DNA of 44,982 bases from an uncultured Gammaproteobacteria bacterium (GTDB taxonomy: Bacteria > Patescibacteriota > Patescibacteriia > Magasanikbacterales > GWA2-37-8), in assembly GCA_964355175.1 (NCBI GenBank), contig CAYHBZ010000001.1, forward strand, positions 505,400-550,381, written 5' to 3'. The position numbers and the translations under genes were made by a program. The stretch's first letter is position 1; each line of letters starts with the position of its first letter. The notes under the pieces were generated by a model. It was not told where the DNA came from. It ran no database searches and saw only the letters and a list, made by a program, of their open reading frames with translations. This document shows positions 4,207 through 35,638 of the stretch, one piece after another.

Positions 4207-4318
4207 TGTCCTGGCGACGGCCTACTTTTGCCTTGCGGCTATCATCGGCGCAGATGAGCTTAACTGCTGTGTTCGGGATGGGAACAGGTGTGACCTCATC
4301 GCTTGTGTCACCAAGACA
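4207..4318 (-). rRNA. rrf: 5S ribosomal RNA
   Basis: The reverse complement reads GTCTTGGTGAC...CCTGTTCCCATCCCGAACACAGCAGTTAAGC...GTCGCCAGGAC. This gives the conserved loop sequence and a closing helix I. Ends are good to about 3 nt. Confidence 0.9.
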
Positions 4319-4424
4319 CTGACTCTTTAATTGTTCAAACTTGAACTTAATAGGTAAACCATGCGCGTTATATTGAGAGTATATTGATATCTTTGCATTC
4401 GTTTAAGCACAACTCAGTGCTTCC

Positions 4425-7632
<3,208 letters not shown>

Positions 7633-12754: not shown

Positions 12755-12800
12755 GGCCAATCGTTCTTTTTAAATTTAGTCAAAAAACCAGAGGCTATAA

Positions 12801-12863
12801 TCTCGATTTGAGAAGATTTTTTATATTATTTTTGTAGTCTAAAAATTCTTCTCAAATCCGAGA
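12801..12863 (+). promoter_or_regulatory. Long 5'-leader hairpin (stem of about 20 bp)
   Basis: tctcgatttgagaagatttt (12801-12820) pairs with aaaaattcttctcaaatccgaga (12841-12863) with two bulges. No U-tract follows on the plus strand. A small cccct/agggg hairpin follows at 12875-12889. Confidence 0.6.
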
Positions 12864-12921
12864 GTTTCCCTCAACCCCTGGGCTAGGGGCAGAAGACACC
12901 AAGATTGAAAAAAGAGGATCC

Positions 12922-13704
12922 ATGAACACGCACTTCCATATCAACGATCAAGGCTTCTTCGTCCCGACGGCCGAAATCAAGGGAGAAACGCTACCTGGCA
13001 ACGAGGACATCGACATCACCCAGGCTGGCGGTATCCAGGCGACTCTCCACCCCATCTTCCACCGTATCAAGGAGTCGTTTCCGCACTCGATGAACTTCGG
13101 CACGTTGGCAGAGTTCGAAGAACGTACCCGTTGGCTCAAGCGGCGACTGGGCGAGGAAGACGAGTACCGCAAACTCGCCAACGGTGTCTGCCTGCCGCTC
13201 GTACTGGGTCAGTACACGTCGACCAATCTAGGCTCCAACCTGGAGAAAACGTTCATCGCGTCTGCGGCACGATCGTACTGTCTGGATTTTCCGGGCCGCG
13301 AACTCGTGAACTACCGCAAGGGCAAGCTGGCCGACATGGTGGAGATCGTCGAAGGCACTCGTCACGATCGCGTGATCGCGAAGATGGCCGAAAGTCCGGT
13401 CTACGCGTTGTACTTCCCGTACGCGCTGTTGGGCTGGTCCATCCCGGCCGATCGCGAACTGATCGCCATGTTGCCCGAAAACTTCGCGCTGACGGGTGGC
13501 ATCGACACCGCCACGGCTTTGGCTGGCTACAGCTACCTGTTGGCCAGCAACTACCGCAAGCCCACCTTGGACTGCGCGGCAATCTGCTGGGACAACCCCA
13601 ACCGGTCGCTGTTCTTTCGTCCCGACGACGACGAACTCGTCTTCGACCGTGGTCGGCTCAGTGCCGACGAGAACTACGCGGGCGGTCTCCTGTACCTCGG
13701 GTAG
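12922..13704 (+). CDS. Orphan hypothetical protein (260 aa) with foreign high-GC codon usage
   Basis: ATG is preceded by AAGAGGA 4 nt upstream. GC3 is about 75% by hand count over the first 72 codons. No motif I recognise. The overlapping ORFs in other frames are typical high-GC shadows. Confidence 0.8.
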   Translation: MNTHFHINDQGFFVPTAEIKGETLPGNEDIDITQAGGIQATLHPIFHRIKESFPHSMNFGTLAEFEERTRWLKRRLGEEDEYRKLANGVCLPLVLGQYTSTNLGSNLEKTFIASAARSYCLDFPGRELVNYRKGKLADMVEIVEGTRHDRVIAKMAESPVYALYFPYALLGWSIPADRELIAMLPENFALTGGIDTATALAGYSYLLASNYRKPTLDCAAICWDNPNRSLFFRPDDDELVFDRGRLSADENYAGGLLYLG

Positions 13705-23340: not shown

Positions 23341-23709
23341 TTAACCATTCAATTTCGAGAATATTAGAGTAGTGATGGCATATGAGCAAGCTACTATTAC
23401 CAAGCCGATTGCAGCCGCTTCGAGGGTACTTCTGGCTGTGGTTACGTTTTCTTCATTGCCCTGAGCAGTCATCCAGCGGATACCGGCAAAGAGCGCAAAA
23501 CCGAGAAACAAAATACCCATTAAAGATAGAGTGATTTTGAGAATATTTTCAGTAATACCTTCGACAGTATTGCCACTAGCATATTGTGTGGCCGAAGCAA
23601 AGGTGGAAAGCTGATAATCATCAGCTTTGGCCGGCATAACAAAAAAACTAGCGCCAAATAAAAATAAAGTGGCGGAAACAAGTACTGTTTTAAAAAATAA
23701 TTTAAACAT
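23341..23709 (-). CDS. Small two-TM VirB2/TrbC-like pilin-family protein (solitary paralog P0)
   Basis: Signal peptide, then hydrophobic helix, then RWMTAQGNEENVTTAR loop, then second hydrophobic helix. This is the same architecture as the array at 24885-29471. Confidence 0.75.
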   Translation of the reverse strand: MFKLFFKTVLVSATLFLFGASFFVMPAKADDYQLSTFASATQYASGNTVEGITENILKITLSLMGILFLGFALFAGIRWMTAQGNEENVTTARSTLEAAAIGLVIVACSYAITTLIFSKLNG

Positions 23710-23779
23710 AGTAAAAATATACGAATATTATACCACACCTTGATTTTTGTGTAAAAATAAGATATGATGGCCGCAATAC

Positions 23780-23890: not shown

Positions 23891-24628
23891 TTAACGATAA
23901 TTGATATATTCTTTGGAAAATGGTCGCTCCAGATACAATACCCAGAAAAAATTTATGGCGTATTTTAACCCCATTTTCACTATCCCTTCGGCCACTATTC
24001 TGCGACTGGAAGAAAAAATAGGCAATTTAAAAGTAAATTTAACTTGTCCAAATTTGATAAGACGACGGGCCAGATCAATATCTTCTCCATAAAATTTCAC
24101 GTCCCGATTATAGCCGCCCATTTTCAATATTGCTTCACGTTTTATCACATAATTTCCTCCCTGAACCATTGAACCAATTTTTAAAAAGTTATTAAAAAAA
24201 TAAAAAAAGTAAGCCAGGGAATAAAAAATTTTCACTAAAAATTTATCTATTTTTGTTAGACCCACGTAGTTGAGCGGACCACTCAAACAAACCAAATTCT
24301 CATTTTCTCTATACTCCGACAACACCTGTCTTAGCCATCCCTCAGGCAAACAATTATCCGCGTCAATATTGACAACTAAATCTCCCTGACTATTTGCAAA
24401 ACCACAGGCACGAGCACAACTTATTCCTTTTTGGGACTCGTGGAATAAATGAACATCGGGAAAATTCTTGATTGCTTCGACTGTTTTGTCGGTGCTGGCA
24501 TTGTTTACCACTATTACCTCCACCTGCGATCGCAAATTGAGAGAATCCACTTCTTTAAAAATAGATTCTAAACATTTGGCGATAGTTTTTTCTTCGTTAT
24601 AAGCTGGAATGACAAAAGACAATTTCAT
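23891..24628 (-). CDS. Family 2 glycosyltransferase
   Basis: SFVIPAYNEEKTI, VVNNASTDKT and NIDADN (the DxD region). Confidence 0.85.
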   Translation of the reverse strand: MKLSFVIPAYNEEKTIAKCLESIFKEVDSLNLRSQVEVIVVNNASTDKTVEAIKNFPDVHLFHESQKGISCARACGFANSQGDLVVNIDADNCLPEGWLRQVLSEYRENENLVCLSGPLNYVGLTKIDKFLVKIFYSLAYFFYFFNNFLKIGSMVQGGNYVIKREAILKMGGYNRDVKFYGEDIDLARRLIKFGQVKFTFKLPIFSSSRRIVAEGIVKMGLKYAINFFWVLYLERPFSKEYINYR

Positions 24629-24884: not shown

Positions 24885-25358
24885 TTAAGGACAAGTACCG
24901 GCACCACAGTTTGGGGCCAAAGGCTGTTGAACACTCCAATAACTTCCGGATAACACCCCTTTGCCAAGCAAGGTATTGAATACAAAAATGGTAATGCTGT
25001 AGGCTAATAATATCACGGCCAAACCAATCACTGCCTGAGTTAAAAGGGTTTTGGCTTTAGTTACTTCATCTTCATTGCCACCGGCAGTCATCCATAGATA
25101 GCCGGCATAGATAGTCAAACACAGGAAGACCATTCCGGTAAGACTAAGTAAAATTCTAATTACCGAAGCCACTACTTCTCTAGGATCTTTCGCCTCACCC
25201 AAATTCGCGCCTTCACTGCCAACGGCCGCGCCAAGCTGGGCGTTCATATCATCGGTATAGCTAGTACTGGTGGCCATTGCTGGCATTGCCAAAAAAACCG
25301 AAAAAATAAAACTACCTAACAGCACTACGGACAAAAATTTTTTTCTTAAAAAAAACAT
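24885..25358 (-). CDS. VirB2/TrbC-like two-TM pilin paralog P1 (C-terminal 2-Cys tail)
   Basis: Signal peptide, LWMTAGGNEDEVTKAK loop between two hydrophobic helices, and a tail ending ...NCGAGTCP. Confidence 0.8.
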   Translation of the reverse strand: MFFLRKKFLSVVLLGSFIFSVFLAMPAMATSTSYTDDMNAQLGAAVGSEGANLGEAKDPREVVASVIRILLSLTGMVFLCLTIYAGYLWMTAGGNEDEVTKAKTLLTQAVIGLAVILLAYSITIFVFNTLLGKGVLSGSYWSVQQPLAPNCGAGTCP

Positions 25359-25361
25359 ATT

Positions 25362-25856
25362 TTATTCTTTTGGAACACCGGCCGCATTATTTTTGGCGGC
25401 ATTTTTAAGACCTTGATACCAACAAGTAAAGAATCCGTCGGTACAATTAGTGTTACTTCCTCCACCTACTTTACTACTCCCGGCACTCTTAGTCCCTGAA
25501 GTTGTAGCCGCTATCACAAAAGCGGTGATAGAGTAAGCGGCCAAAGTAATAAACATACCAAGCGATGCGCGCATTATTATATCTTTGGCTTTGGTTACCT
25601 GATCTTCATTGCCGGAAGCAGTCATCCACAGAAATCCGGCATAAATTGTAAGTGCCAAAAATATTGTTCCGGACAATGACAGTGCTACTTTAATATATTT
25701 ACCAATCTGCTGAGACAAGGTCAATTCATTCGCCGCATCAAATCCAGACACAGTGGCGATTGTGCCTGCCCGGTCGGTACCAATATCTGGAGCCGCTTGA
25801 GTCAAGGCTGGCAACAACAATATAATTAATAAAATTGCCGATAAAATTTTTTTCAT
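25362..25856 (-). CDS. VirB2/TrbC-like pilin paralog P2 (C-terminal 2-Cys tail)
   Basis: LWMTASGNEDQVTKAK loop and a tail NCTDGFFTCWYQG. Confidence 0.8.
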   Translation of the reverse strand: MKKILSAILLIILLLPALTQAAPDIGTDRAGTIATVSGFDAANELTLSQQIGKYIKVALSLSGTIFLALTIYAGFLWMTASGNEDQVTKAKDIIMRASLGMFITLAAYSITAFVIAATTSGTKSAGSSKVGGGSNTNCTDGFFTCWYQGLKNAAKNNAAGVPKE

Positions 25857-25860
25857 AAAT

Positions 25861-26376
25861 TTACTTCTTTACCGTACACGCACTATCGCTAAAATTATTG
25901 TCATCAACACAGGTAGTTGTTTTTATTACCCCACATTTACCATCTTTGTCTTTACAATAAATCTCTGTTTCTGGAGATGGGGTTGGAGTTGGGGAGCCGC
26001 CACTATTCAATTTACTTGTAACAAAAGCCGTAATAGCATACGCACTCAAAGTCACCGCCAAACCAATCACCGCTTGAGTTATGATATCCTTGGCTTTGGT
26101 CACTTTTTCTTCGTTGCCAGCTGCAGTCATCCAAAGTATGCCGGCATATACGGACAAAGCCAAAAATATTGTTCCTACCAAAGAAAGGGCTCCTTTGATT
26201 ATTGTACTGATTGAAGTATTTATATCACTATTTAAACCTGCACCTTTTGATCCCGCCACCGAATCCAATCGGCCAATCGCCGAATTTCCATCTTTTACGC
26301 TTCCAAACTGGGCACTGGCGGACAAAGGAGCTACCAAAGCTATTAATAATACTCCTAAAATTAAAATCTTTTTCAT
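25861..26376 (-). CDS. VirB2/TrbC-like pilin paralog P3 (C-terminal 4-Cys module)
   Basis: LWMTAAGNEEKVTKAK loop and a tail YCKDKDGKCGVIKTTTCVDDNNFSDSACTVKK. Confidence 0.8.
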   Translation of the reverse strand: MKKILILGVLLIALVAPLSASAQFGSVKDGNSAIGRLDSVAGSKGAGLNSDINTSISTIIKGALSLVGTIFLALSVYAGILWMTAAGNEEKVTKAKDIITQAVIGLAVTLSAYAITAFVTSKLNSGGSPTPTPSPETEIYCKDKDGKCGVIKTTTCVDDNNFSDSACTVKK

Positions 26377-26385
26377 AAAATATTT

Positions 26386-26910
26386 TTATTTCTTTGTCTG
26401 ACAGTTATTATCTGTATAAGTATTATTATCGGCACAAACAGCTGTCTTGATATTGCCACAAACACCCTTAACATCCTTACAATAATCCTCTGCAACCGGA
26501 TCCGGAGTTTTTTTTGTGCTCGTACTTAAATTAGTAAACACAAAATTCGTAATAGCATAAGCGGCCGATACTATTATCAAACCAATAATAGCCGACTGAA
26601 TGACATCTTTTGCTCTTTGTACATCATCGCTGGCACCCATGGATTTCATCCATACTATACCGGCATAAAGCATCATACCCAAAAAGAACATGCCGGTAAA
26701 AGACAACAAAAGCTTTACCACCAACCCAATCACGCCCACCAAACCAGTTTGCCCTTTGATATTATCCGGCAATTGGGCACTTTGTTGAGTAGCGGTAAGA
26801 CCGTAGTCACTGTCCGCGACTGCAAACACCCTTTGAGGAAAAATTACACCCACCAATAAAAAAAGAAGGCTTAAAAAAACCACTCCATTAATTATCTTTG
26901 TTAAAAACAT
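26386..26910 (-). CDS. VirB2/TrbC-like pilin paralog P4 (C-terminal 4-Cys module)
   Basis: VWMKSMGASDDVQRAK loop and a tail YCKDVKGVCGNIKTAVCADNNTYTDNNCQTKK. The start is taken at MFLTKI (26910). Confidence 0.75.
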   Translation of the reverse strand: MFLTKIINGVVFLSLLFLLVGVIFPQRVFAVADSDYGLTATQQSAQLPDNIKGQTGLVGVIGLVVKLLLSFTGMFFLGMMLYAGIVWMKSMGASDDVQRAKDVIQSAIIGLIIVSAAYAITNFVFTNLSTSTKKTPDPVAEDYCKDVKGVCGNIKTAVCADNNTYTDNNCQTKK

Positions 26911-27031
26911 ACTTTTTATTATTGGGCAAAGAAAGAATTTTTTCCTTTCTCTTACCAATAATTATTTTTAGAGAACGCGCGCCAATTTCCTAGGATTTTC
27001 CGGCGAACCGGCGCGCAATTCTCTAAAATTA

Positions 27032-27445
27032 CTATGGTGCTCCAGTGAGACCAGTAGCGGAAGAAAGCTGAGTAATGACAAATGAGGCCAAAGCGTAAGC
27101 GGACAAAATAATGGCTAGACCGATAATACCGGAGAAGATCCATTTTTTTGCTTCGCCAACCTGGTCTTCGTTGCCACCGGCAGTCATCCATTTGAAACCA
27201 CCTACCAAGATGATTACTACGGCTACGATACCGAGCAAGCCCATGGCTACGCGGATAATAGAAGCGATTGTGGAACGTACATCAGTACTTCCCAAACCGA
27301 TAGAAGCGCCGTAACTTAAACCTAAGTCTTTGGCTTCCATAACACCTGAGGTCGTGATAGCGCTTGCGGACAATGGACCAAAAGCGGCCAATGCCAACAA
27401 TAAAATAGCGGATAACGACAAACTAGTTGCTAAAATCTTTTTCAT
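27032..27445 (-). CDS. VirB2/TrbC-like pilin paralog P5 (shortest; no Cys module; candidate major subunit)
   Basis: KWMTAGGNEDQVGEAK loop. A strong GGAGGTG Shine-Dalgarno lies 6 nt before the ATG at 27445. It has its own TGtTATAAT extended -10 at 27485-27493. Confidence 0.8.
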   Translation of the reverse strand: MKKILATSLSLSAILLLALAAFGPLSASAITTSGVMEAKDLGLSYGASIGLGSTDVRSTIASIIRVAMGLLGIVAVVIILVGGFKWMTAGGNEDQVGEAKKWIFSGIIGLAIILSAYALASFVITQLSSATGLTGAP

Positions 27446-27521
27446 AATGTCACCTCCTTCCAAAATGTTGTTTTCATATCAAATATTATAACACAATCCA
27501 ATTTTTTAAGCTACATTATTT

Positions 27522-28067
27522 TTACTGCCCCAGTGGATGAAAAAATGCGTCAATGATAGCTTTTAATATCACATAGCTAGCCACTGTTATCACCGCTCCC
27601 AGCACCGCCCAAAGAATAGTTTTGGTACCGGATTCTATTTTCTCAGGATTACCACCAGCATCGATCCAACTTACGGCTCCTTTTACTACCATCAACAATA
27701 CCGCACCGCCCATTATTCCCATCGCTACTCTGATTACCTGACCGATTATATCAGCTGGAGTTTTGACACCTCCCAAAGGATTATCTAATTTTGTATAGAT
27801 GGCTTTAGGATTTTGCGCTGATTGATTTTTGCTGGTATCAACCTCTTTTTTAGGAATTTTACTGCAATCTCCAGCTTGCTTGGTACAAATCAAGGCGTCC
27901 GTGCTTTTACATTTCAAATTCGTTTCTGCTTCACTGCTATATTCGGTACAGCCACCATCCGCGCAAACACATCTGAATGTGCTATCAGCCAAAACTACAG
28001 ATGGCAAGAGAATGATTAGTGCCAAAAAAAATGTTAAAAATATTTTTTCCAATTTTTTCATAATCAT
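27522..28067 (-). CDS. VirB2/TrbC-like pilin paralog P6 (N-terminal Cys-rich module)
   Basis: Signal peptide, then FRCVCADGGCTEY...KCKSTDALICTKQAGDC, then the two-helix pilin core (SWIDAGGNPEKIESG). Confidence 0.75.
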   Translation of the reverse strand: MIMKKLEKIFLTFFLALIILLPSVVLADSTFRCVCADGGCTEYSSEAETNLKCKSTDALICTKQAGDCSKIPKKEVDTSKNQSAQNPKAIYTKLDNPLGGVKTPADIIGQVIRVAMGIMGGAVLLMVVKGAVSWIDAGGNPEKIESGTKTILWAVLGAVITVASYVILKAIIDAFFHPLGQ

Positions 28068-28783
28068 CCAAATAAATTAGTAAACACAAATTTTACAAAT
28101 ATATAGCTGGATAAACTAAATACTATACCTAGGCTGGTCCAGGTCAATATACTCTTGGCTTTGGTAATATTTTCTGGACTAGACGACATCCATAAAAAGC
28201 CGGCATAAATATACATTATCATCGCTAGAGCACCGATAGGAAACATTAAAAAAGAAATTGCTCTTCCGAGTAATTGTACCACCCCATCTTTCCCCGTCAT
28301 AAAACCGACCGGATTCAAAATCTTTTTGGCTTCTGTTTTCAGCTGTCCTAATTTACCGGAGGCACTGGTATTAAAATCATCACAGTTACCTGGCTCAAAA
28401 TTACAATTTATCTCACCCGGATATCCTTTTTTACAAAGCCCAATATCATTGGATATATGGCATTTTTGTTCGGCGGTTTTGGTGTCGGTACAAACACAAC
28501 GATCGCTTGTGCCGCCTCCGCCATTGGGAGTTTTTTTACAAGGACCAGGATAAGCTTCACAACTTCCCACCGTTGCACATTTTGCTTGTGCTGTTGCCAA
28601 ATCCGGCTGCTGAAAACCATCATTACAAACGGCTTTATCTGCCGCCATATAACCCTTTCCTTTGGAAATATAGCCAAGACGACAATCACAACTATAAGTC
28701 TCAGCCTTGACCACCGACGGACTCGCAAAAAGCATCCCTACTAAAAATGCTCCAAAATATAATACCGTTTTAAAATTTTTCAT
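28064..28783 (-). CDS. VirB2/TrbC-like pilin paralog P7 (large N-terminal Cys-rich module)
   Basis: About 15 Cys in the first 150 aa (YSCDCRLGY..., CVCTDTK...), then the pilin core LWMSSSPENITKAK. The start is taken at MKNFKTV (28783). Confidence 0.75.
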   Translation of the reverse strand: MKNFKTVLYFGAFLVGMLFASPSVVKAETYSCDCRLGYISKGKGYMAADKAVCNDGFQQPDLATAQAKCATVGSCEAYPGPCKKTPNGGGGTSDRCVCTDTKTAEQKCHISNDIGLCKKGYPGEINCNFEPGNCDDFNTSASGKLGQLKTEAKKILNPVGFMTGKDGVVQLLGRAISFLMFPIGALAMIMYIYAGFLWMSSSPENITKAKSILTWTSLGIVFSLSSYIFVKFVFTNLFG

Positions 28784-28784
28784 A

Positions 28785-29471
28785 CTATTGTAAAGCATAA
28801 GTACTGCTGATACCGATGGCCGTACCTAAATAACTAACTAAAACATAGCCACAAAAAGCTACTACCAACCCCAGCAACGCGGCCATTATTATATCTTTCC
28901 CTTGAGTAATTTTATCCGGGGATCCGCTGGAGAAAATAAGGACGAAACCGCCATAGATAAAAAATAACAATGCCAAACCACCGACAAAACTTAATAAATA
29001 ATTCACAATAGTCAACATCAATGTGATAAAAATAGTCACATCAGTACAAGGATTTTTTTTATCGGTAAAATCAATCTTATCGGCCAAAGCACAGGCTGGT
29101 ATCACTTGACTCTTGGCGGCCTGCTCCACCTTCTTATCATCTTCTTTGGTTTGCTTTAAATTCTTTAAAGCAAGAACTTTTTCCTTTTGCCAACTACTTT
29201 TTCTTGCCGCGCAATCTTTTGTGTCATCCGCTTGCAAACACACAAAATTTACTTTCCCTTGAGGCACCAAAGTGGCGGGATAGGTAACACACTGATCTAA
29301 TGGCATCACTTTACAAACCGTTTCGGTGGTATTATTTATTTGCTCCGGTGTAGCCGAATCTAAATCTAGCTGACAATAACAATATATATCAGCGGCTTTC
29401 ACGGCCGTTGGCTGAAAAAATATTACCAAAAGCGGTAAAACCAACAGAAATACCTTTACAAAATTCTTCAT
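28785..29471 (-). CDS. VirB2/TrbC-like pilin paralog P8 (N-terminal Cys-rich module)
   Basis: IYCYCQLDL...VCKVMPLDQC...FVCLQADDTKDC, then a divergent pilin core (VLIFSSGSPDKITQGK). The start lies 1 nt after the SBP stop. Confidence 0.7.
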   Translation of the reverse strand: MKNFVKVFLLVLPLLVIFFQPTAVKAADIYCYCQLDLDSATPEQINNTTETVCKVMPLDQCVTYPATLVPQGKVNFVCLQADDTKDCAARKSSWQKEKVLALKNLKQTKEDDKKVEQAAKSQVIPACALADKIDFTDKKNPCTDVTIFITLMLTIVNYLLSFVGGLALLFFIYGGFVLIFSSGSPDKITQGKDIIMAALLGLVVAFCGYVLVSYLGTAIGISSTYALQ

Positions 29472-29472
29472 A

Positions 29473-30837
29473 CTAAAAAGTTTGATTTACCTTGGCGGCG
29501 CCTTGATTTAGAATCTCAGCCTTTATCTCTTGCGCCCGACTATCTTCTCCGATCGGCTGAAGCCATCGGGCAATCATTTCGCTTATTGCTTTTACAGCAG
29601 CCGCATAATCGCGCCCACGATACCAATTTTTGGCAATTAAAATTTGATTCACAAAAGGTTCGAGCTCCGGTTTAGTTTTTTGATCGGTAATATAAGCACG
29701 CAAAGCGGTCGGTCTGCCAGTCTTATCCAGATAATCCTTGGTAGCTTTGGAGTGAGTCAAAAAATTAATTAAACCCCAAGCTTCATTTTGATGCTTTGAT
29801 TTGGCCGTCACAGTCTGCACCCAATAGCTAGCCACATTGACCGGCTTATCCGGATTTAATTGAAACAACGGCAATACACGAAAATCCAATTGCGGAGCGC
29901 GAGATTTAATAATTGGATAGTGGTAACTATAACCAAAGAAAAATCCTACTTTTCCATTTACAAAAGCATCAAGCGCGTCACCCTGATCAGCCGACCAACT
30001 ATAAGTATCACGGGCCGGATTGGCATAATCGGTATAAAAATCCATCACATCAAAGGCGGCTCCACCTTGATTGAAGAAAGCTTGACCACTGCCGCCAACA
30101 AAACTTAAATTACTCTGCTGATACAAAATATAGAGCAGATCATCACTACCCGGCACATTTTCTCCAGTACCAAAAGCGGCTCCGGATTGAATAATTTTAC
30201 CAGTTTTTTTGTCGTACTTGGTAATCTTTTTTACATGCTGCTGAAATTCTTCCCAATTGGTCGGTGGTTGAGCAATACCGGCGCGATCCAAAAGATCTTT
30301 ATTGTAGTAAACCGCCATCATATCTATCGAAAGCGGCAAACCATAGATTTCTCCGCCCTTTACCACATCATCCTTTACCACTTTAATATATTCATTATCA
30401 AGCTGAGCCAGATTCACGAGCGGCTGAGTGAGAGTATTTACCGTCACCGTCTGACTAAACTTTCCTTTTTCCACGAGCACGGTCGTATCTGGCACAGACG
30501 CCGGCATCGGTGCAAGTTTACTGACAAATTTTCCTAAATCACGATTTTGTATAGAAATAATATCCGGACCATGGTCTTCGGCCAAAGCTTCAATCAGACG
30601 AGGATACAATTCATCGGCACGCAACTGGCGAATATTTACATTTATATATTGTCGTAGACCGCGATAGGCATTTATTTCAGCCTGCATCGCATCCACATCA
30701 TCAAACACTGTCCAATATTCCAGCGTTACCGGTTTGGTAGCCTGTTGTTGAGCGCCAGACAAACCTTTACAACCAAAACCAGCGGTCAAAAGCAAAACCG
30801 CCAGAGTAGAGAATGAAATTATATTTTTTAATTTCAT
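29473..30837 (-). CDS. Lipoprotein, ABC-transporter extracellular solute-binding protein family 1 (sugar-type); orphan, with no permease or ATPase nearby
   Basis: Lipobox-like LLTAGFGC. Size and sequence style match sugar SBPs (YWTVFDD..., AVYYNKDLL, WEEF). Confidence 0.75.
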   Translation of the reverse strand: MKLKNIISFSTLAVLLLTAGFGCKGLSGAQQQATKPVTLEYWTVFDDVDAMQAEINAYRGLRQYINVNIRQLRADELYPRLIEALAEDHGPDIISIQNRDLGKFVSKLAPMPASVPDTTVLVEKGKFSQTVTVNTLTQPLVNLAQLDNEYIKVVKDDVVKGGEIYGLPLSIDMMAVYYNKDLLDRAGIAQPPTNWEEFQQHVKKITKYDKKTGKIIQSGAAFGTGENVPGSDDLLYILYQQSNLSFVGGSGQAFFNQGGAAFDVMDFYTDYANPARDTYSWSADQGDALDAFVNGKVGFFFGYSYHYPIIKSRAPQLDFRVLPLFQLNPDKPVNVASYWVQTVTAKSKHQNEAWGLINFLTHSKATKDYLDKTGRPTALRAYITDQKTKPELEPFVNQILIAKNWYRGRDYAAAVKAISEMIARWLQPIGEDSRAQEIKAEILNQGAAKVNQTF

Positions 30838-30917: not shown

Positions 30918-31787
30918 TTATACCACAGTTTTCAAATATTTCCTAAAGTCATCTTTTAATTTTGGATCGCGCAAAGCAAATTCAACATTGGCGCGCAAAT
31001 ATCCCAATTTTGAACCGGTATCATGATAAGTGCCGTCCACCTGACAGGCGTAAATTGGACGTTTTTTTAACAATTTGAATATCGCGTCTACCAACCACAA
31101 TTCACCGCCTTTTCCTATTTTTGTTTTTTCCAACGCTTCAAAAATATCCGGAGTCAACACAAATCCACCCAAACTGGCGATACGAGACGGAGCGGACTTT
31201 GGCCCCGGTTTTTCCACAATATTTTTTACTTGCACTACTCCTTTTTCAACTTCTATACCGTCAATTATACCATATCTTTCAGTCCCACTATCATCTACTT
31301 TGTACCCTGTCACAACCGGATCGCCATATTTTTCATACACTTCTACAAGTTGTTGTAATTGAGATTTTTTGGGAGTATAAAAAAATTCATCACCCCACAT
31401 TACTGCAAAAGGTTCGTCCCCAATTATATCCTTGGCGCACAAAACCGGCGTACCATTTCCATATGGACCCTTTTGGCGAATGAAAATAAAGTTGGCCATA
31501 TCGGCAATCTTTTTTACATCTTCGGCCATCTCATGTTTCTTTTGCTTTTTCAGCCAGTTGATCAATTCATAATTTGGACTAAAATGATCTTCCACCGCAC
31601 GCTTGCTCGGACCGGTTACCATAATAATATCAGTAATGCCAGCACGAATTGCGTCTTCTACCACATATTGGATAATCGGTTTGTCCACCACTGGCAACAT
31701 CTCTTTTGGCTGAGCTTTGGTAGCTGGTAAAAATCGAGTACCCAGACCGGCGACCGGAATAACTAACTTACGAATTTTTTGTGACAT
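30918..31787 (-). CDS. galU: UTP-glucose-1-phosphate uridylyltransferase
   Basis: IPVAGLGTRFLPATKAQPKEMLPVVDKPIIQY, plus typical length. Confidence 0.92.
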   Translation of the reverse strand: MSQKIRKLVIPVAGLGTRFLPATKAQPKEMLPVVDKPIIQYVVEDAIRAGITDIIMVTGPSKRAVEDHFSPNYELINWLKKQKKHEMAEDVKKIADMANFIFIRQKGPYGNGTPVLCAKDIIGDEPFAVMWGDEFFYTPKKSQLQQLVEVYEKYGDPVVTGYKVDDSGTERYGIIDGIEVEKGVVQVKNIVEKPGPKSAPSRIASLGGFVLTPDIFEALEKTKIGKGGELWLVDAIFKLLKKRPIYACQVDGTYHDTGSKLGYLRANVEFALRDPKLKDDFRKYLKTVV

Positions 31788-31863: not shown

Positions 31864-33237
31864 TTACTCTACTTCCTCCCAAGAAATCAGATTATACTGC
31901 GAACCAACTGGAAAACCAGGTGGAGGCCCATAGGTCAAATTGGCGTCATAAGTAGCATTGGTGACGCGATAACCAGAAACCACTGCCCCACCACCCGACA
32001 CCCAGCTCCAAGTCCAAAGTCCATTAGAGATTACCGAACCATAAATAATCAGATCATCTTTCATATCGCCCGGATAATAATAGCGTTTGGCCGCTCCGTT
32101 TTGAGCTAGCAATGCGGCGTTAATTTCCAGTGAATTTAGAGAATCATGCGGGATTAAAATATTTTGTTCGGCCATTAAACCCAACACATGATTTCCATCT
32201 TTGGCACTATATAATAAATTACCATTTATAATAATACTTTTCCCAGTAGCTGTACCTACAGTGGCGCGACCATTTATCGTGCCGTCTACCCAGACATTAT
32301 CTTCTACATATATGTAGCCATTTGTGGGCATACTATAAGTAGTAGGCGTACCATATGTAGCCGCGTCAATGCACGGCCAAAAATAATTATTATCATTTAC
32401 ATCTTTGGCTTTATAACAATTAGTAGTATTTACTTTATAAGCTTTAAAAGTGCCGTCAGACAAAAACTGCAGACGCCAACCTTGTTTGCCAGAAGACGAC
32501 AAATAAACACCGCCGACTTCCTGGGAACCGGTTTTTATCTGAGCCAAGCTGGCAGTAATAGCCGAAAAATCTTGCGCTGGTGCCGGGAAACTCCAATAGG
32601 TGGTCGGACCTCCTTGACCCCAAATACCGGGCTTAATTTGATTACCACAACCATGATAATCTTTACAGAGATAAGTCGGCACCGCGCTAGTAATTGGAGC
32701 ATTACCTACACCATCAAAGCGAACACCGCCGTTGGCATGAAATTTACCGCTAATTGTTTCATTGTTCCCAATCCACACATCGCCATTAGTCAAAAAAGCA
32801 TAATCCGTCAGAGCCGGAAAACCCAAACGCGCTTTGAGTACACGTTTGCTGTTGGGCTGTGAATCCAGCCAGCCGGTAGATTCTACCGTCACCACAGTGG
32901 AGCCGGTAAGCGGCGCAATAATATTGAGAGAAAAATGACCGACCGCGTTGCCGTCTTTATCTTCATAGGCATGGACATACGGTCCGGAAGCGCCAGTACC
33001 ATCTTGGTAATCATTTTTGTCGTGCGCCAGATGCCAGCGATAATAATTTATCCCGGCTTCGGCAATCTGAAAAGCCATCTCGCGATTGTGTTTATAATTC
33101 GACGCCCCGTTCTCCGAAATAGCATAACCCGATACACCAATCACAATCAAACTAAAAGCAATCGCGCCAAAAATCATCACGAACATTAAAATATTGCCGT
33201 GATTATTTTTTTTAAATTTTTTAAAAACAGAATTCAT
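31864..33237 (-). CDS. Hypothetical pilus-associated protein with a PilX-like hydrophobic N-terminus
   Basis: N-terminal TM segment (ILMFVMIFGAIAFSLIVIGVSG) followed by a large extracellular domain. It abuts two prepilin genes. Confidence 0.55.
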   Translation of the reverse strand: MNSVFKKFKKNNHGNILMFVMIFGAIAFSLIVIGVSGYAISENGASNYKHNREMAFQIAEAGINYYRWHLAHDKNDYQDGTGASGPYVHAYEDKDGNAVGHFSLNIIAPLTGSTVVTVESTGWLDSQPNSKRVLKARLGFPALTDYAFLTNGDVWIGNNETISGKFHANGGVRFDGVGNAPITSAVPTYLCKDYHGCGNQIKPGIWGQGGPTTYWSFPAPAQDFSAITASLAQIKTGSQEVGGVYLSSSGKQGWRLQFLSDGTFKAYKVNTTNCYKAKDVNDNNYFWPCIDAATYGTPTTYSMPTNGYIYVEDNVWVDGTINGRATVGTATGKSIIINGNLLYSAKDGNHVLGLMAEQNILIPHDSLNSLEINAALLAQNGAAKRYYYPGDMKDDLIIYGSVISNGLWTWSWVSGGGAVVSGYRVTNATYDANLTYGPPPGFPVGSQYNLISWEEVE

Positions 33238-33843
33238 TTAATTACTTTTTAAATTTCTAATTTCTGTTTTTCCTTCTATATAAAGCGGCGCTGGCGAAAC
33301 ATTTGGTCGCAAATCGAGCCAAAGTTTAATGCCGATCATACGGATTTTGGAAATATCTATCGGGAAATTCATACTAGAGGTGCTACTGATGCCGTCGTAA
33401 CTTTGATCATAATAATAAAAAAGAGTGGTGGTATTATTGAGATCATGAGACACTTCCGACACCACTTCATTGACACTGTTATAAGCAAGCGGAGTGCCGG
33501 TCGGTTTGATAATACCGCGTTTGAGAGTGGTGCCAGAAACAAAATATCGCACTCGTTCTTTCCAGCTATCAGTATCAACATTGGAATAAAAAATAATTTG
33601 ATCCGCGTTGGCTAGCTCTACCGGATAAGCACCGACACTAGAATAACTAGAACGACGCAAATCATTCAAAAAATTTTGACTGGCAATACGACCATCATTT
33701 TGCTTTGACAACTGCTCAAAAACCACATCTTTGCCGTGATTGCCCCATATGAGCATTTCCGCGATAGTGCCGGAAAACATTATAAATATTCCCATTACTA
33801 CCAGCATCTCAATCAGCGAAAAACCTTTATTATTCAATTTCAT
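33238..33843 (-). CDS. Type IV pilin-like protein (prepilin-type N-terminal cleavage/methylation motif)
   Basis: KG|FSLIEMLVVMGIF gives G-1, F+1 and E+5. Confidence 0.8.
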   Translation of the reverse strand: MKLNNKGFSLIEMLVVMGIFIMFSGTIAEMLIWGNHGKDVVFEQLSKQNDGRIASQNFLNDLRRSSYSSVGAYPVELANADQIIFYSNVDTDSWKERVRYFVSGTTLKRGIIKPTGTPLAYNSVNEVVSEVSHDLNNTTTLFYYYDQSYDGISSTSSMNFPIDISKIRMIGIKLWLDLRPNVSPAPLYIEGKTEIRNLKSN

Positions 33844-33844
33844 A

Positions 33845-35638
33845 TTATAAAGGTGACAAATTTACTTCCACTTCCCCGTTGCCGCTCACAGAAATATCAC
33901 CATTGTTGGTGCTATAGCCACTACGAGAAATATCCAAATTATAAGTACCACTGCTTAAACCATTAAAAAATACTTGGCCTGGCGGAATACAATTATTGGT
34001 AAAAGTAATATCTACTTCTGAAAGCTGAGGCGTATAATGATTGTCGGCCGTAGACAAAAATACACGATAACGCACATAGCGATTATTGGCCAAACCGGAA
34101 TATATCACCGAACTGGTACTCGAATAATAAGTGGTATTACTGCCATCAGGACCAACAAAATTCCAGCTAGCGGCGTTGGGTGTATTGGTCGCGGCCAATT
34201 GAAACAGTATTGGAGAGGCTCCGGTTTGAGCCGGCTGTGAGAGTGGTTCAAAAATTAAATTGCGCAAAGTCACGCTACTGCCCAAATCAAAAGTAGATGA
34301 TTCCAAATTGCCACTGGCGGCATAAAAATTTCCGGTCTTTTTTAATTTCAAATCACCATCCGGTGATGAATTTTCTAAATTTCCACTATCGACAAAATAT
34401 TTGGCATCATCAATAAAATTAGTCTGGCCGCTTCCATTAGACCAATCGGTCTGACGAATATATCCCAGATCAGTTTGCAGACTATCATCAAAGCCAGAGC
34501 CGACCAAATGCACCGTGGCATTGGAAAGCGGTAGACCGGTGCCCGCATCCTTGGCTTTTATCAACAGGGAATTGGCTGTATGCGATTCCAGAATTAAAAA
34601 CAAATTTTGGCTTGATCCCGGATTTAATTTAAACGGCAACATCGGCACTGTTCCAGCCAAATCATAAGTGGTTCCATCTAAATCCAAATCATAGGTATCC
34701 CATTCTAAATTATTTAAACTATAATTATTGGCAGAAAGAGAAAAATTTAAACTAGTTTTATAAACATTTGGATTGGCGCCAAGAATTTTTGTACCAAATA
34801 AATTTACCGAAGGGCCGCCGACCGCCCCGCAAGTCTGATCCACTGAATAAACATTTAAATCCGACGACTTATCGATACTAAAACTTATCTCGGTGATATT
34901 TTGACTCACTACATTCGATGGCGGTTTGAGTGGATTGGGATTGGCGACTGAGCTACTCACCGTGTAATCACTATTATATCCATTTTTACTTACAGTAATA
35001 TTATAGCTAAGTGTGCCGGTGGGCGCGTCCACTATTTTTAACATCCCATCATTATCGGTCACATCATCGATAATCACATCCGGGTTGATCACGGTGTTTA
35101 CTATATGAACATTGGCTTGAGTTACCGGCAAACCATTGGCATCAAAAACATGAATAAATAAAGCGCCATTTTGACTAGCCCCTTCCAAATTTTTTGGAGA
35201 CACTATCGTACTAAGTATTACCGGTTCTTTCTGACTACAATTATCACAAATCGCTGACATTTCTACCTGTTTATAATCCGCGGCAGAGGCATCATTTGGA
35301 TTACCTCCCAAAATTCCATCAAAAGGATCGTCAATATTGCGAACCGAAGTAATCACCGTAAAATTAGCGCCATTGCGATTGATAGTTTGTGAATGTAGTA
35401 ATACACCTGCTGGTATACCATTTACCAGACCCACACTATCATATGGAATATTGTGTACGATTTCCAACTGTTCACTCAGCAAAGCCGTTTCCAAAATTTT
35501 CATGCGCGACTGATACACAATTTTAAAGACCATCGATATAGTACTATATATACCCAGCGCGAAAATCAAAAAAATTGCGATCGCGACACTGATCTCAATG
35601 AGAGTAAAGCCGGAAACTTTAAATTTTTCTTTTTGCAT
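33845..35638 (-). CDS. Large (597 aa) type IV prepilin-like protein with repeated carboxypeptidase-regulatory/Ig-like modules
   Basis: SG|FTLIEISVAIAIF prepilin motif. Several ...V.V....G...T.D..G.. beta-sandwich-like repeats follow. Confidence 0.75.
   Translation of the reverse strand: MQKEKFKVSGFTLIEISVAIAIFLIFALGIYSTISMVFKIVYQSRMKILETALLSEQLEIVHNIPYDSVGLVNGIPAGVLLHSQTINRNGANFTVITSVRNIDDPFDGILGGNPNDASAADYKQVEMSAICDNCSQKEPVILSTIVSPKNLEGASQNGALFIHVFDANGLPVTQANVHIVNTVINPDVIIDDVTDNDGMLKIVDAPTGTLSYNITVSKNGYNSDYTVSSSVANPNPLKPPSNVVSQNITEISFSIDKSSDLNVYSVDQTCGAVGGPSVNLFGTKILGANPNVYKTSLNFSLSANNYSLNNLEWDTYDLDLDGTTYDLAGTVPMLPFKLNPGSSQNLFLILESHTANSLLIKAKDAGTGLPLSNATVHLVGSGFDDSLQTDLGYIRQTDWSNGSGQTNFIDDAKYFVDSGNLENSSPDGDLKLKKTGNFYAASGNLESSTFDLGSSVTLRNLIFEPLSQPAQTGASPILFQLAATNTPNAASWNFVGPDGSNTTYYSSTSSVIYSGLANNRYVRYRVFLSTADNHYTPQLSEVDITFTNNCIPPGQVFFNGLSSGTYNLDISRSGYSTNNGDISVSGNGEVEVNLSPL

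Follow-up and report, generated by a model that had tools for sequence, protein, structure and literature searches.

A chromosomal tandem array of VirB2-like pilin genes with cysteine-rich extensions in a Magasanikbacteria-like member of the Patescibacteria

A stretch of 44,982 nucleotides (nt) from a 953,736-bp metagenomic contig (hereafter, the window) carries, between 22 and 31 kb in our listing of open reading frames (ORFs), a chromosomal tandem array of nine divergent PF18895-type pilin genes, all on the minus strand. We consider it likely that this locus is a Patescibacteria-type array of VirB2-like type IV secretion system (T4SS) pilins, in which one bare paralog, P5, is the major subunit and the others are accessory, knob-bearing subunits. 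The locus type itself has already been published and the array is a further member of the described kind (PMC12102498, PMC10633639, PMC12857230); it reveals no new system. What the window adds is incremental but useful, namely a split into major and accessory pilins, an even-numbered cysteine decoration, and a conserved coupling to a solute-binding protein (SBP) gene away from T4SS genes. This DNA is chromosomal and comes from a Magasanikbacteria-like organism within the Patescibacteria (Candidate Phyla Radiation, CPR); its closest homologs and syntenic loci are from metagenome-assembled genomes (MAGs) labeled Candidatus Magasanikbacteria, Uhrbacteria, or ‘Patescibacteria group’.

Eight of the genes (P1–P8) are contiguous at 24885–29471 and the ninth (P9) is detached at 23341–23709, which bears out the layout given in a first-pass annotation of this DNA. 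They are listed here with their scores against PF18895:

P8, 28785..29471, minus strand: pilin of 228 amino acids (aa) with a predicted N-terminal 8-Cys ectodomain; 35.4 bits
P7, 28064..28798, minus strand: pilin of 244 aa with a predicted N-terminal 12-Cys ectodomain; 27.2 bits
P6, 27522..28067, minus strand: pilin of 181 aa with a predicted N-terminal 6-Cys ectodomain; 34.5 bits
P5, 27032..27463, minus strand: bare, Cys-free pilin and candidate major subunit; 44.3 bits, E = 1.8e-11
P4, 26386..26958, minus strand: pilin with a predicted C-terminal 4-Cys knob; 22.4 bits, under the 26.6-bit cut-off
P3, 25861..26376, minus strand: pilin of 171 aa with a Ser/Pro/Thr linker and a predicted C-terminal 4-Cys knob; 33.7 bits
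P2, 25362..25856, minus strand: pilin of 164 aa with a 2-Cys C-terminal tail (Cys 138 and 145); 26.7 bits
P1, 24885..25358, minus strand: pilin of 157 aa with a 2-Cys C-terminal tail (Cys 151 and 156); 30.5 bits
P9, 23341..23709, minus strand: detached pilin of 122 aa with a strong promoter-like site of its own; 35.9 bits

Every copy is a complete gene with a start codon, a signal peptide, and a stop codon; there is no truncated silent cassette. The true start of P5 is likely an ATG at 27445, internal to the ORF, and that of P4 likely M17 at ~26910, giving 174 aa (a gene call taken from the comparison sequence L001). The junctions within P1–P8 measure 3, 4, 9, 73, 58, −4, and −14 nt, matching the spacing first reported, while P9 is separated from the array by one protein-coding gene (a family-2 glycosyltransferase, GT2) and two tRNA genes.

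A common core of ~78 residues can be aligned in all nine proteins; G75, G112, and Y120 (P1 numbering) are invariant in it, and identity to P1 is 21–41% at full length and 24–65% in the core. A hydropathy scan placed in each pilin an N-terminal hydrophobic signal-like region that ends at an AxA-type site, and two hydrophobic helices after it; signal peptides were judged from the hydropathy peaks and the AxA-type cleavage sites visible in the sequences. The common core claimed earlier thus holds for the signal peptide and the two helices in all nine, whereas its exact WMTAxGNE loop occurs in only five (P1, P2, P3, P5, and P9) and is degenerate in P4, P6, P7, and P8.

All nine proteins match the Pfam family PF18895 (T4SS_pilin; E = 1.8e-11 to 1.3e-4), eight of them at 26.7–44.3 bits and hence above the gathering cut-off of 26.6 bits. 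Only P4 stays under it (22.4 bits, E = 1.3e-4), despite a core that is 44–47% identical to those of P1–P3. The profile comparison proposed in the first-pass annotation therefore yielded significant similarity, and the label ‘VirB2/TrbC-like’ stands in the sense of a two-helix, VirB2-like family; direct membership in PF04956 (TrbC/VirB2) is not supported by the scores given below. We likewise rejected a type IV pilin (T4P) identity, with none of the nine pilins matching the prepilin N-methylation motif (class III signal peptide G↓FxxxE; PF07963/TIGR02532). A profile built from the nine pilins matches, at E ≤ 1e-3, 86,173 clusters (one representative for each cluster at 50% identity), which makes this a very large family; close homologs carry the NCBI names ‘pilin’ or ‘hypothetical protein’ and belong to Candidatus Magasanikbacteria or Patescibacteria. 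Among the top matches to the family profile are single proteins with 2–17 pilin cores (P0135–P0282; P0142 has 1775 aa and 17 such stretches), which may be genuine fusions of several pilins or errors of gene calling.

Eight of the nine paralogs also match NCBIfam NF045849, a pilin-like conjugal transfer protein of Mycoplasma integrative conjugative elements (ICEs), all under its 40-bit cut-off. P5 scores best (35.6 bits, E = 5.4e-9), as it does for TrbC. The Mycoplasma protein (Mbov_0395 / MMCAP2_0565) shares an 80-residue two-helix core and a monoderm T4SS with the window pilins, but is single-copy and encoded inside an ICE. These subthreshold matches suggest that monoderm elements of the MPF_FATA type may have a related pilin, a likeness that bears on the question of whether Patescibacteria co-opted their pilin from diderms.

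In a VirB2-like topology, the N-terminus of the mature protein and the C-terminus are both outside the cell, with the WMTAxGNE-x-V-x-x-AK loop facing the cytoplasm. The variable parts of the paralogs, that is, the N-terminal region past the signal peptide and the C-terminal tail, both lie outside in this arrangement, consistent with the original description of them as exposed. In solved conjugative pili, both termini are on the outer face and the loop points toward the lumen, so that decorations at either end would be surface-exposed. AlphaFold2 modeled P3 (with 40 homologs) as a helical hairpin of residues 50–84 and 89–125 at a pLDDT of ~80, with a small, low-confidence beta-hairpin in the Cys tail; the P7 model (11 sequences; mean pLDDT 57.5) was too poor to interpret the Cys-rich domain.

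For comparison, a one-genome-per-species scan with five cores, in which P5 was the lead query, selected 79 related loci, mostly from Magasanikbacteria and Uhrbacteria, and pilin ORFs in these loci were found with a hidden Markov model built from the nine cores. At least five pilin ORFs were present in 74 of 81 sequences (the 79 loci, L001, and the window), with a median of 9 and a maximum of 13. The closest loci preserve the order P8-P7-P6-P5-P4-P3-P2-P1 followed by a detached pilin ahead of PNPase; such a detached pilin past the array and ahead of PNPase occurs in ~20 related loci, and P9 is its best match in 11. Module type tracks core lineage and array position across the 79 loci: cores of the P6, P7, and P8 types carry N-terminal Cys modules, those of the P2, P3, P4, and P9 types C-terminal Cys tails, and those of the P5 type are mostly bare (99 of 123). 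The modules had been described as ‘shuffled’; we rejected this, with gene order kept in the closest relatives and module type bound to core type. Many MAG records titled ‘uncultured Gammaproteobacteria bacterium’ (L004, L007, L009, L011, and others) carry the Patescibacteria-specific array and synteny, and their titles are thus evidently mislabeled.

Cysteines in the outward-facing parts number 2–12, and always an even count, in all eight non-P5 paralogs. The N-terminal modules of P6, P7, and P8 contain 6, 12, and 8 cysteines, which corrects an earlier count of 7 to about 15; for the tails (four in P3 and P4, two in P1 and P2) and the module-free P5, our counts agree with the previous ones. 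In P6 the cysteines are at positions 33, 35, 40, 53, 61, and 68, and in P8 at 31, 33, 53, 61, 78, 87, 127, and 142. The P7 ectodomain consists of two CxC-initiated sub-modules, the second half of it resembling the module of P6, and the P4 tail reads YCKDVKGVCGNIKTAVCADNNTYTDNNCQTKK. A single extra cysteine sits in a membrane helix in each of P1 (C80, helix 1), P8 (C207, helix 2), and P9.

The same pattern extends to 644 related pilins, of which 262 (~40%) have at least four cysteines outside the core. Cysteine makes up 3.9% of residues in the extensions, 0.1% of those in the core, and 0.9% of those in background ORFs. Among C-terminal tails with two or more cysteines, 155 have an even count and 2 an odd one; for mature N-terminal extensions, after crude signal-peptide trimming, 144 are even and 12 odd (3 or more). 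Even parity is what intramolecular disulfides would predict, and thereby places both termini on the oxidizing, extracytoplasmic side (N-out/C-out). The parity thus argues for the pilin extensions being disulfide-bonded, outward-facing ectodomains. CPR genomes are enriched in an MdbA-like oxidoreductase and VKOR (bioRxiv 10.1101/335083).

In alignments of orthologs, the cores are conserved while the ectodomains are altered by substitutions and indels with their cysteines retained. P7 orthologs share ~70–80% identity in the core and differ by indels in the ectodomain, in which RC[VI]C…C…G.C is invariant; 564 P3 homologs combine a conserved core with a tail that varies in sequence and has 4–6 cysteines. 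Some related pilins bear very large Cys-rich C-terminal regions (L005 9846–11456, L049 9800–13886, L011 14101–15531), the extremes being a 52-Cys tail in L005 and a protein of 1362 aa in L049. The repeats in these large regions look EGF-like by eye.

P5 differs from its neighbors in its flanks as well as in its lack of cysteines. Three elements read from the sequence surround it:

27485..27493, minus strand: extended −10 promoter-like element TGTTATAAT upstream of P5
27451–27459, minus strand: perfect Shine-Dalgarno (SD) sequence AAGGAGGTG, preceding the internal ATG of P5 at 27445
26967..27028, minus strand: stable hairpin immediately past the P5 stop codon, a terminator or mRNA stabilizer

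The 86-nt stretch around the hairpin (26955–27040) has a minimum free energy (MFE) of −35.4 kcal/mol (z = −5.3), equaled by none of 200 shuffles. Across loci, the median gaps flanking P5-type genes are 78 nt upstream and 88 nt downstream, compared with 8 nt at other pilin–pilin junctions; a strong SD precedes 30% of P5-type genes and 1% of other pilin genes; and the 70 nt downstream have a median MFE of −22.8 kcal/mol for P5-type genes and −9.1 for the other pilins. The P5 core has 62–92% identity across the 79 loci and outscores every other paralog by 35 bits, whereas identity for the other types is ~35–70%—a contrast inflated by the use of P5 as lead query. Taken together, conservation, a promoter-like site of its own, a strong SD, and a terminator-like hairpin lead us to infer that P5 is probably the major subunit of the set, expressed separately and strongly. 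P9, too, has a promoter-like site (23727–23755; TTTACA-17-TATAAT with an upstream TG, near-consensus with 11 of 12 positions matched). The putative transcription pattern is then one in which P8-P7-P6 are co-translated with the SBP, P4–P1 form another unit, and P9 uses its own near-consensus promoter.

Arrays of this kind are known from a survey of 3,035 Patescibacteria genomes by Quinonero-Coronel et al. (2025), who searched with profiles including PF18895 and PF04956 (PMC12102498). They reported VirB4 in 2,417 of the genomes, VirB2-like pilins in 1,948 assemblies also having VirB4, family members inside T4SS clusters adjoining virB4 in 1,135 assemblies, and 441 VirB2-like arrays of 2–11 pilin genes in 383 assemblies, mainly of Microgenomatia and Saccharimonadia, with a mutual identity averaging 25% and reaching 54% (PMC12102498). 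Wang et al. (2023) found a series of predicted pilin genes in the T4SS cluster of Southlakia epibionticum to be essential for epibiotic growth (PMC10633639), and a 2025 review singles out these systems as the sole T4SSs of the Gram-positive type with VirB2-like pilins (PMC12857230).

The window array agrees with the published definition: its pilin genes are in tandem or split by one non-pilin gene, their mutual identity is low (21–41% at full length, at most 65% in the core), and the host belongs to the Patescibacteria. Like the published arrays it is made of tandem PF18895/VirB2-like genes, is chromosomal, and has no relaxase nearby. The published comparators are the array of Southlakia epibionticum ML1, with six pilins, and, in Nanosynbacter lyticus TM7x, the ‘Sec-secreted array’. 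The array of Southlakia lies within its T4SS cluster, whereas that of the window is far from T4SS genes and coupled to GalU and an orphan SBP; and the Magasanikbacteria and Uhrbacteria loci studied here hold up to 13 genes, compared with no more than 11 in the published survey. In the accounts of Patescibacteria T4SSs that we consulted (including PMC12102498 and PMC10633639), we found no description of a Cys-rich decoration with even parity and no mention of coupling between an SBP and an array, nor, in these two papers, of a separately expressed bare paralog.

More distant systems share some of these features. The TrbC/VirB2/TraA pilins (PF04956; F, T, and RP4 pili) also combine a signal peptide with a helix-loop-helix hairpin. 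In contrast to them, the window host is a monoderm, no VirB3–B11 operon is linked to the array, the sequence match remains below the family cut-off, and up to 13 paralogs replace the one pilin of the classical systems, which is without disulfide-rich extensions. The VirB2 paralogs of Bartonella and Anaplasma phagocytophilum offer a parallel for tandem amplification and diversification of a surface-exposed pilin, and their multiplicity has been suggested as a means of wider interaction with the host (cited in PMC12102498). These are, however, diderm intracellular pathogens with complete VirB operons, whose paralogs are without Cys-rich add-on domains and whose variation is thought to serve immune evasion.

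Upstream of the array, and between it and P9, lie three genes that recur in related genomes:

30918..31787, minus strand: GalU-like UTP-glucose-1-phosphate uridylyltransferase (Pfam NTP_transferase), conserved upstream neighbor of the array
29473..30837, minus strand: orphan carbohydrate-type SBP (Pfam SBP_bac_8 and SBP_bac_1, E = 1e-24)
23891..24628, minus strand: GT2 between array and P9 (Pfam Glycos_transf_2, E = 1.7e-29)

The arrangement GalU, SBP, array recurs in ~55–60 of the 79 related loci. The GalU-like gene, which scores 324.6 bits against NCBIfam TIGR01099 galU (E = 4.7e-97; just below the 326.8-bit cut-off), is syntenic in 55 loci, and the SBP gene is present in 60. The SBP has a lipoprotein-like N-terminus (…TAGFGC…) and weak similarity to GanS/MalE/UgpB, and no ABC permease was found among the window ORFs scanned. 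Its stop codon lies 1 nt ahead of the P8 start, and the two genes are translationally coupled; in 63 SBP genes, the measured distance to the first pilin ORF had a median of 6 nt and was at most 20 nt in 45. The slot between array and detached pilin is always occupied by a glycosyltransferase: the window and 12 loci have a GT2 there, many others a GT28/MGDG-synthase-like gene on the opposite strand (L002 13901–15022; L013 4772–5860), which hints at glycosylation of pilins or lipids. Three type IV pilus minor-pilin-like genes (31864–35638, minus strand) stand near the VirB2-like array, upstream of galU, two with N_methyl (33238–33843 and 33845–35638) and one with a weak PilX_N match; they are syntenic in 20–27 related loci, so that two different pilin systems share one surface island.

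Under the reading we favor, P5 would make up most of a T4SS-type filament, or of a pilin pool embedded in the membrane, and T4SS ATPases encoded at other sites in the genome would be needed for assembly. The remaining paralogs would be accessory subunits that co-assemble via the shared core and display small disulfide-stabilized knobs on the outer surface. Such knobs would serve in the attachment to, or recognition of, the host cells needed by epibiotic bacteria, and their fast divergence would reflect adaptation to different host surfaces.

Several observations weigh against this reading. The cut-off of PF04956 (27.9 bits) was not reached, with P5 scoring best (16.6 bits, E = 0.009) and P1 at 13.2 bits. 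A Foldseek search of the P3 model against the PDB returned no match below E = 4, which is unsurprising given how little signal a bare helical hairpin holds; the core profile retrieved no solved pilins from PDB sequences, only spurious designed ‘Pizza’ proteins; and hhalign against an Agrobacterium VirB2 sequence gave a colinear alignment of 12% probability, a lead only, in which the ‘GISWM’ of VirB2 falls on the W/M-rich end of helix 1. To our knowledge, a T4SS pilus has not been observed on any Patescibacterium. Gram-positive-type T4SSs are normally without pili (PMC12857230). The proposed major/accessory split is based on expression signals predicted from sequence and on conservation, the latter inflated as described, and the pilus model leaves the tight SBP coupling unexplained. 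Finally, T4SS ATPase or channel genes are absent from the window and from the 10 kb beyond each end, which hold housekeeping genes only, and none of 120 listed matches to type IV coupling proteins falls on the contig of the window.

Among window ORFs of at least 100 aa scanned, no VirB4, VirB6, or VirD4 homolog was found, the only related ATPase being the housekeeping FtsK. This confirms their absence as first noted, and the view that this is not a standard conjugative pilin locus gains support from the lack of VirB/Trb mating-pair-formation genes in the window. A link to T4SS machinery appears in relatives. On one Magasanikbacteria contig (L019), a P5-type pilin lies ~2.5 kb downstream of an 851-aa coupling-protein-like ATPase with TrwB_AAD_bind, T4SS-DNA_transf, and TraG-D_C domains and more than 4,000 homologs. 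The same ATPase family occurs in three array-bearing MAGs (GW2011_GWA2_37_8, Gr01-1014_13, and RIFOXYD2_FULL_41_14), there on contigs other than that of the array and in housekeeping surroundings, which points to T4SS genes being dispersed in this lineage. In L044, L045, and L060, the large ORFs beside a lone P5-type pilin had no informative match in Pfam and may be spurious.

The strongest rival, which we nevertheless regard as unlikely, is that the proteins are not filament subunits at all: they would be two-helix membrane anchors that show disulfide-rich ectodomains on the membrane or envelope, ‘pilin’ being only a family name, and might work with the co-transcribed solute-binding lipoprotein, for example in a nutrient-capture or host-contact patch. 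The translational coupling of the SBP gene to the first pilin, the absence of T4SS genes nearby, and the lack of a significant match to solved VirB2/TraA pilins all suit such anchors, and ectodomains of several hundred residues (L005, L049) would take up much room if borne by each subunit of a thin filament. VirB2-type pilins, moreover, reside in the membrane before assembly. Against this stand the G, G, and Y residues invariant in the helices of all nine paralogs and the P5-type copy near a coupling-protein-like gene in L019, as well as the family members beside virB4 in 1,135 assemblies. A bare, conserved P5 with strong predicted expression would also fit a polymer with one major subunit better than a set of anchors.

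An extension of the T4SS pilin reading, put forward tentatively and in our estimate improbable, is that Magasanikbacteria and Uhrbacteria build a heteropolymer filament with a P5-type shaft and up to a dozen knobbed accessory pilins forming a combinatorial host-recognition surface, of which the SBP, and possibly GalU and the glycosyltransferases, would be functional parts. The SBP could then act, for example, as a ligand-capture module at tip or base, and GalU and the glycosyltransferases in the glycosylation of pilins or lipids.

We think it very unlikely that the array is an antigenic or phase-variation repertoire in which an expressed pilin is rewritten from its neighbors by gene conversion, with a shared DNA block as the recombination site; the first-pass annotation had raised gene conversion through this block. 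The block it described, TTCRTTGCCNNNNGCAGTCATCCA (TTCRTTGCC-N4-GCAGTCATCCA), does occur in exactly five copies where 0.01 would be expected by chance, recA lies in the window, and a comparison with the VirB2 paralogs of Bartonella and Anaplasma has been drawn (PMC12102498). However, these 24 nt with 4 free positions, the longest block common to the copies, are merely the codons of WMTAxGNE, and DNA identity around them is 63–79% between copies. All nine genes are full-length, and each paralog has its own orthologs in the same order in other genera with module type following core type, arguing that the paralogs are old and individually maintained rather than homogenized. Together with the 63–79% identity, this disfavors shuffling and gene conversion alike. 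A cassette system of the Neisseria pilE/pilS type was rejected in the same way, as neither truncated silent cassettes nor long identical recombination tracts are present.

That the proteins are secreted or membrane-active small peptides (bacteriocin-like or holin-like) merely sharing a hydrophobic hairpin with pilins is hardly credible: they are small, hydrophobic, two-helix proteins in multicopy arrays, some with Cys-rich tails as in some bacteriocins, but their profile matches are specific to PF18895 and NF045849, immunity, ABC-exporter, and modification genes were not found nearby, and many genera keep the locus in the same chromosomal context.

Patescibacteria, which account for a large part of bacterial diversity, grow attached to other microbes, and in the one genetically tractable species their T4SS and pilin arrays are essential. 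The locus gives this known system a testable structure, and the findings could guide work on host recognition and on whether a monoderm truly builds a VirB2-type pilus.

The rest of the window is housekeeping, with 23S and 5S rRNA, tRNAs, S15, PNPase, RecA, FtsK, SOD, UppS, and genes of sugar and polyamine metabolism. The 23S rRNA match (4209–7626, minus strand; 5S adjacent) spans 3205 nt against a 2925-nt model, indicating insertion(s) of ~280 nt, and with no 16S gene in the window the rRNA genes appear unlinked. A GC-rich island (12795–13704; 54.5% vs. ~40%) contains, past a long palindrome (12795–12869), a 260-aa ORF (12922–13704, plus strand) without a Pfam match, which may be a horizontally acquired gene.

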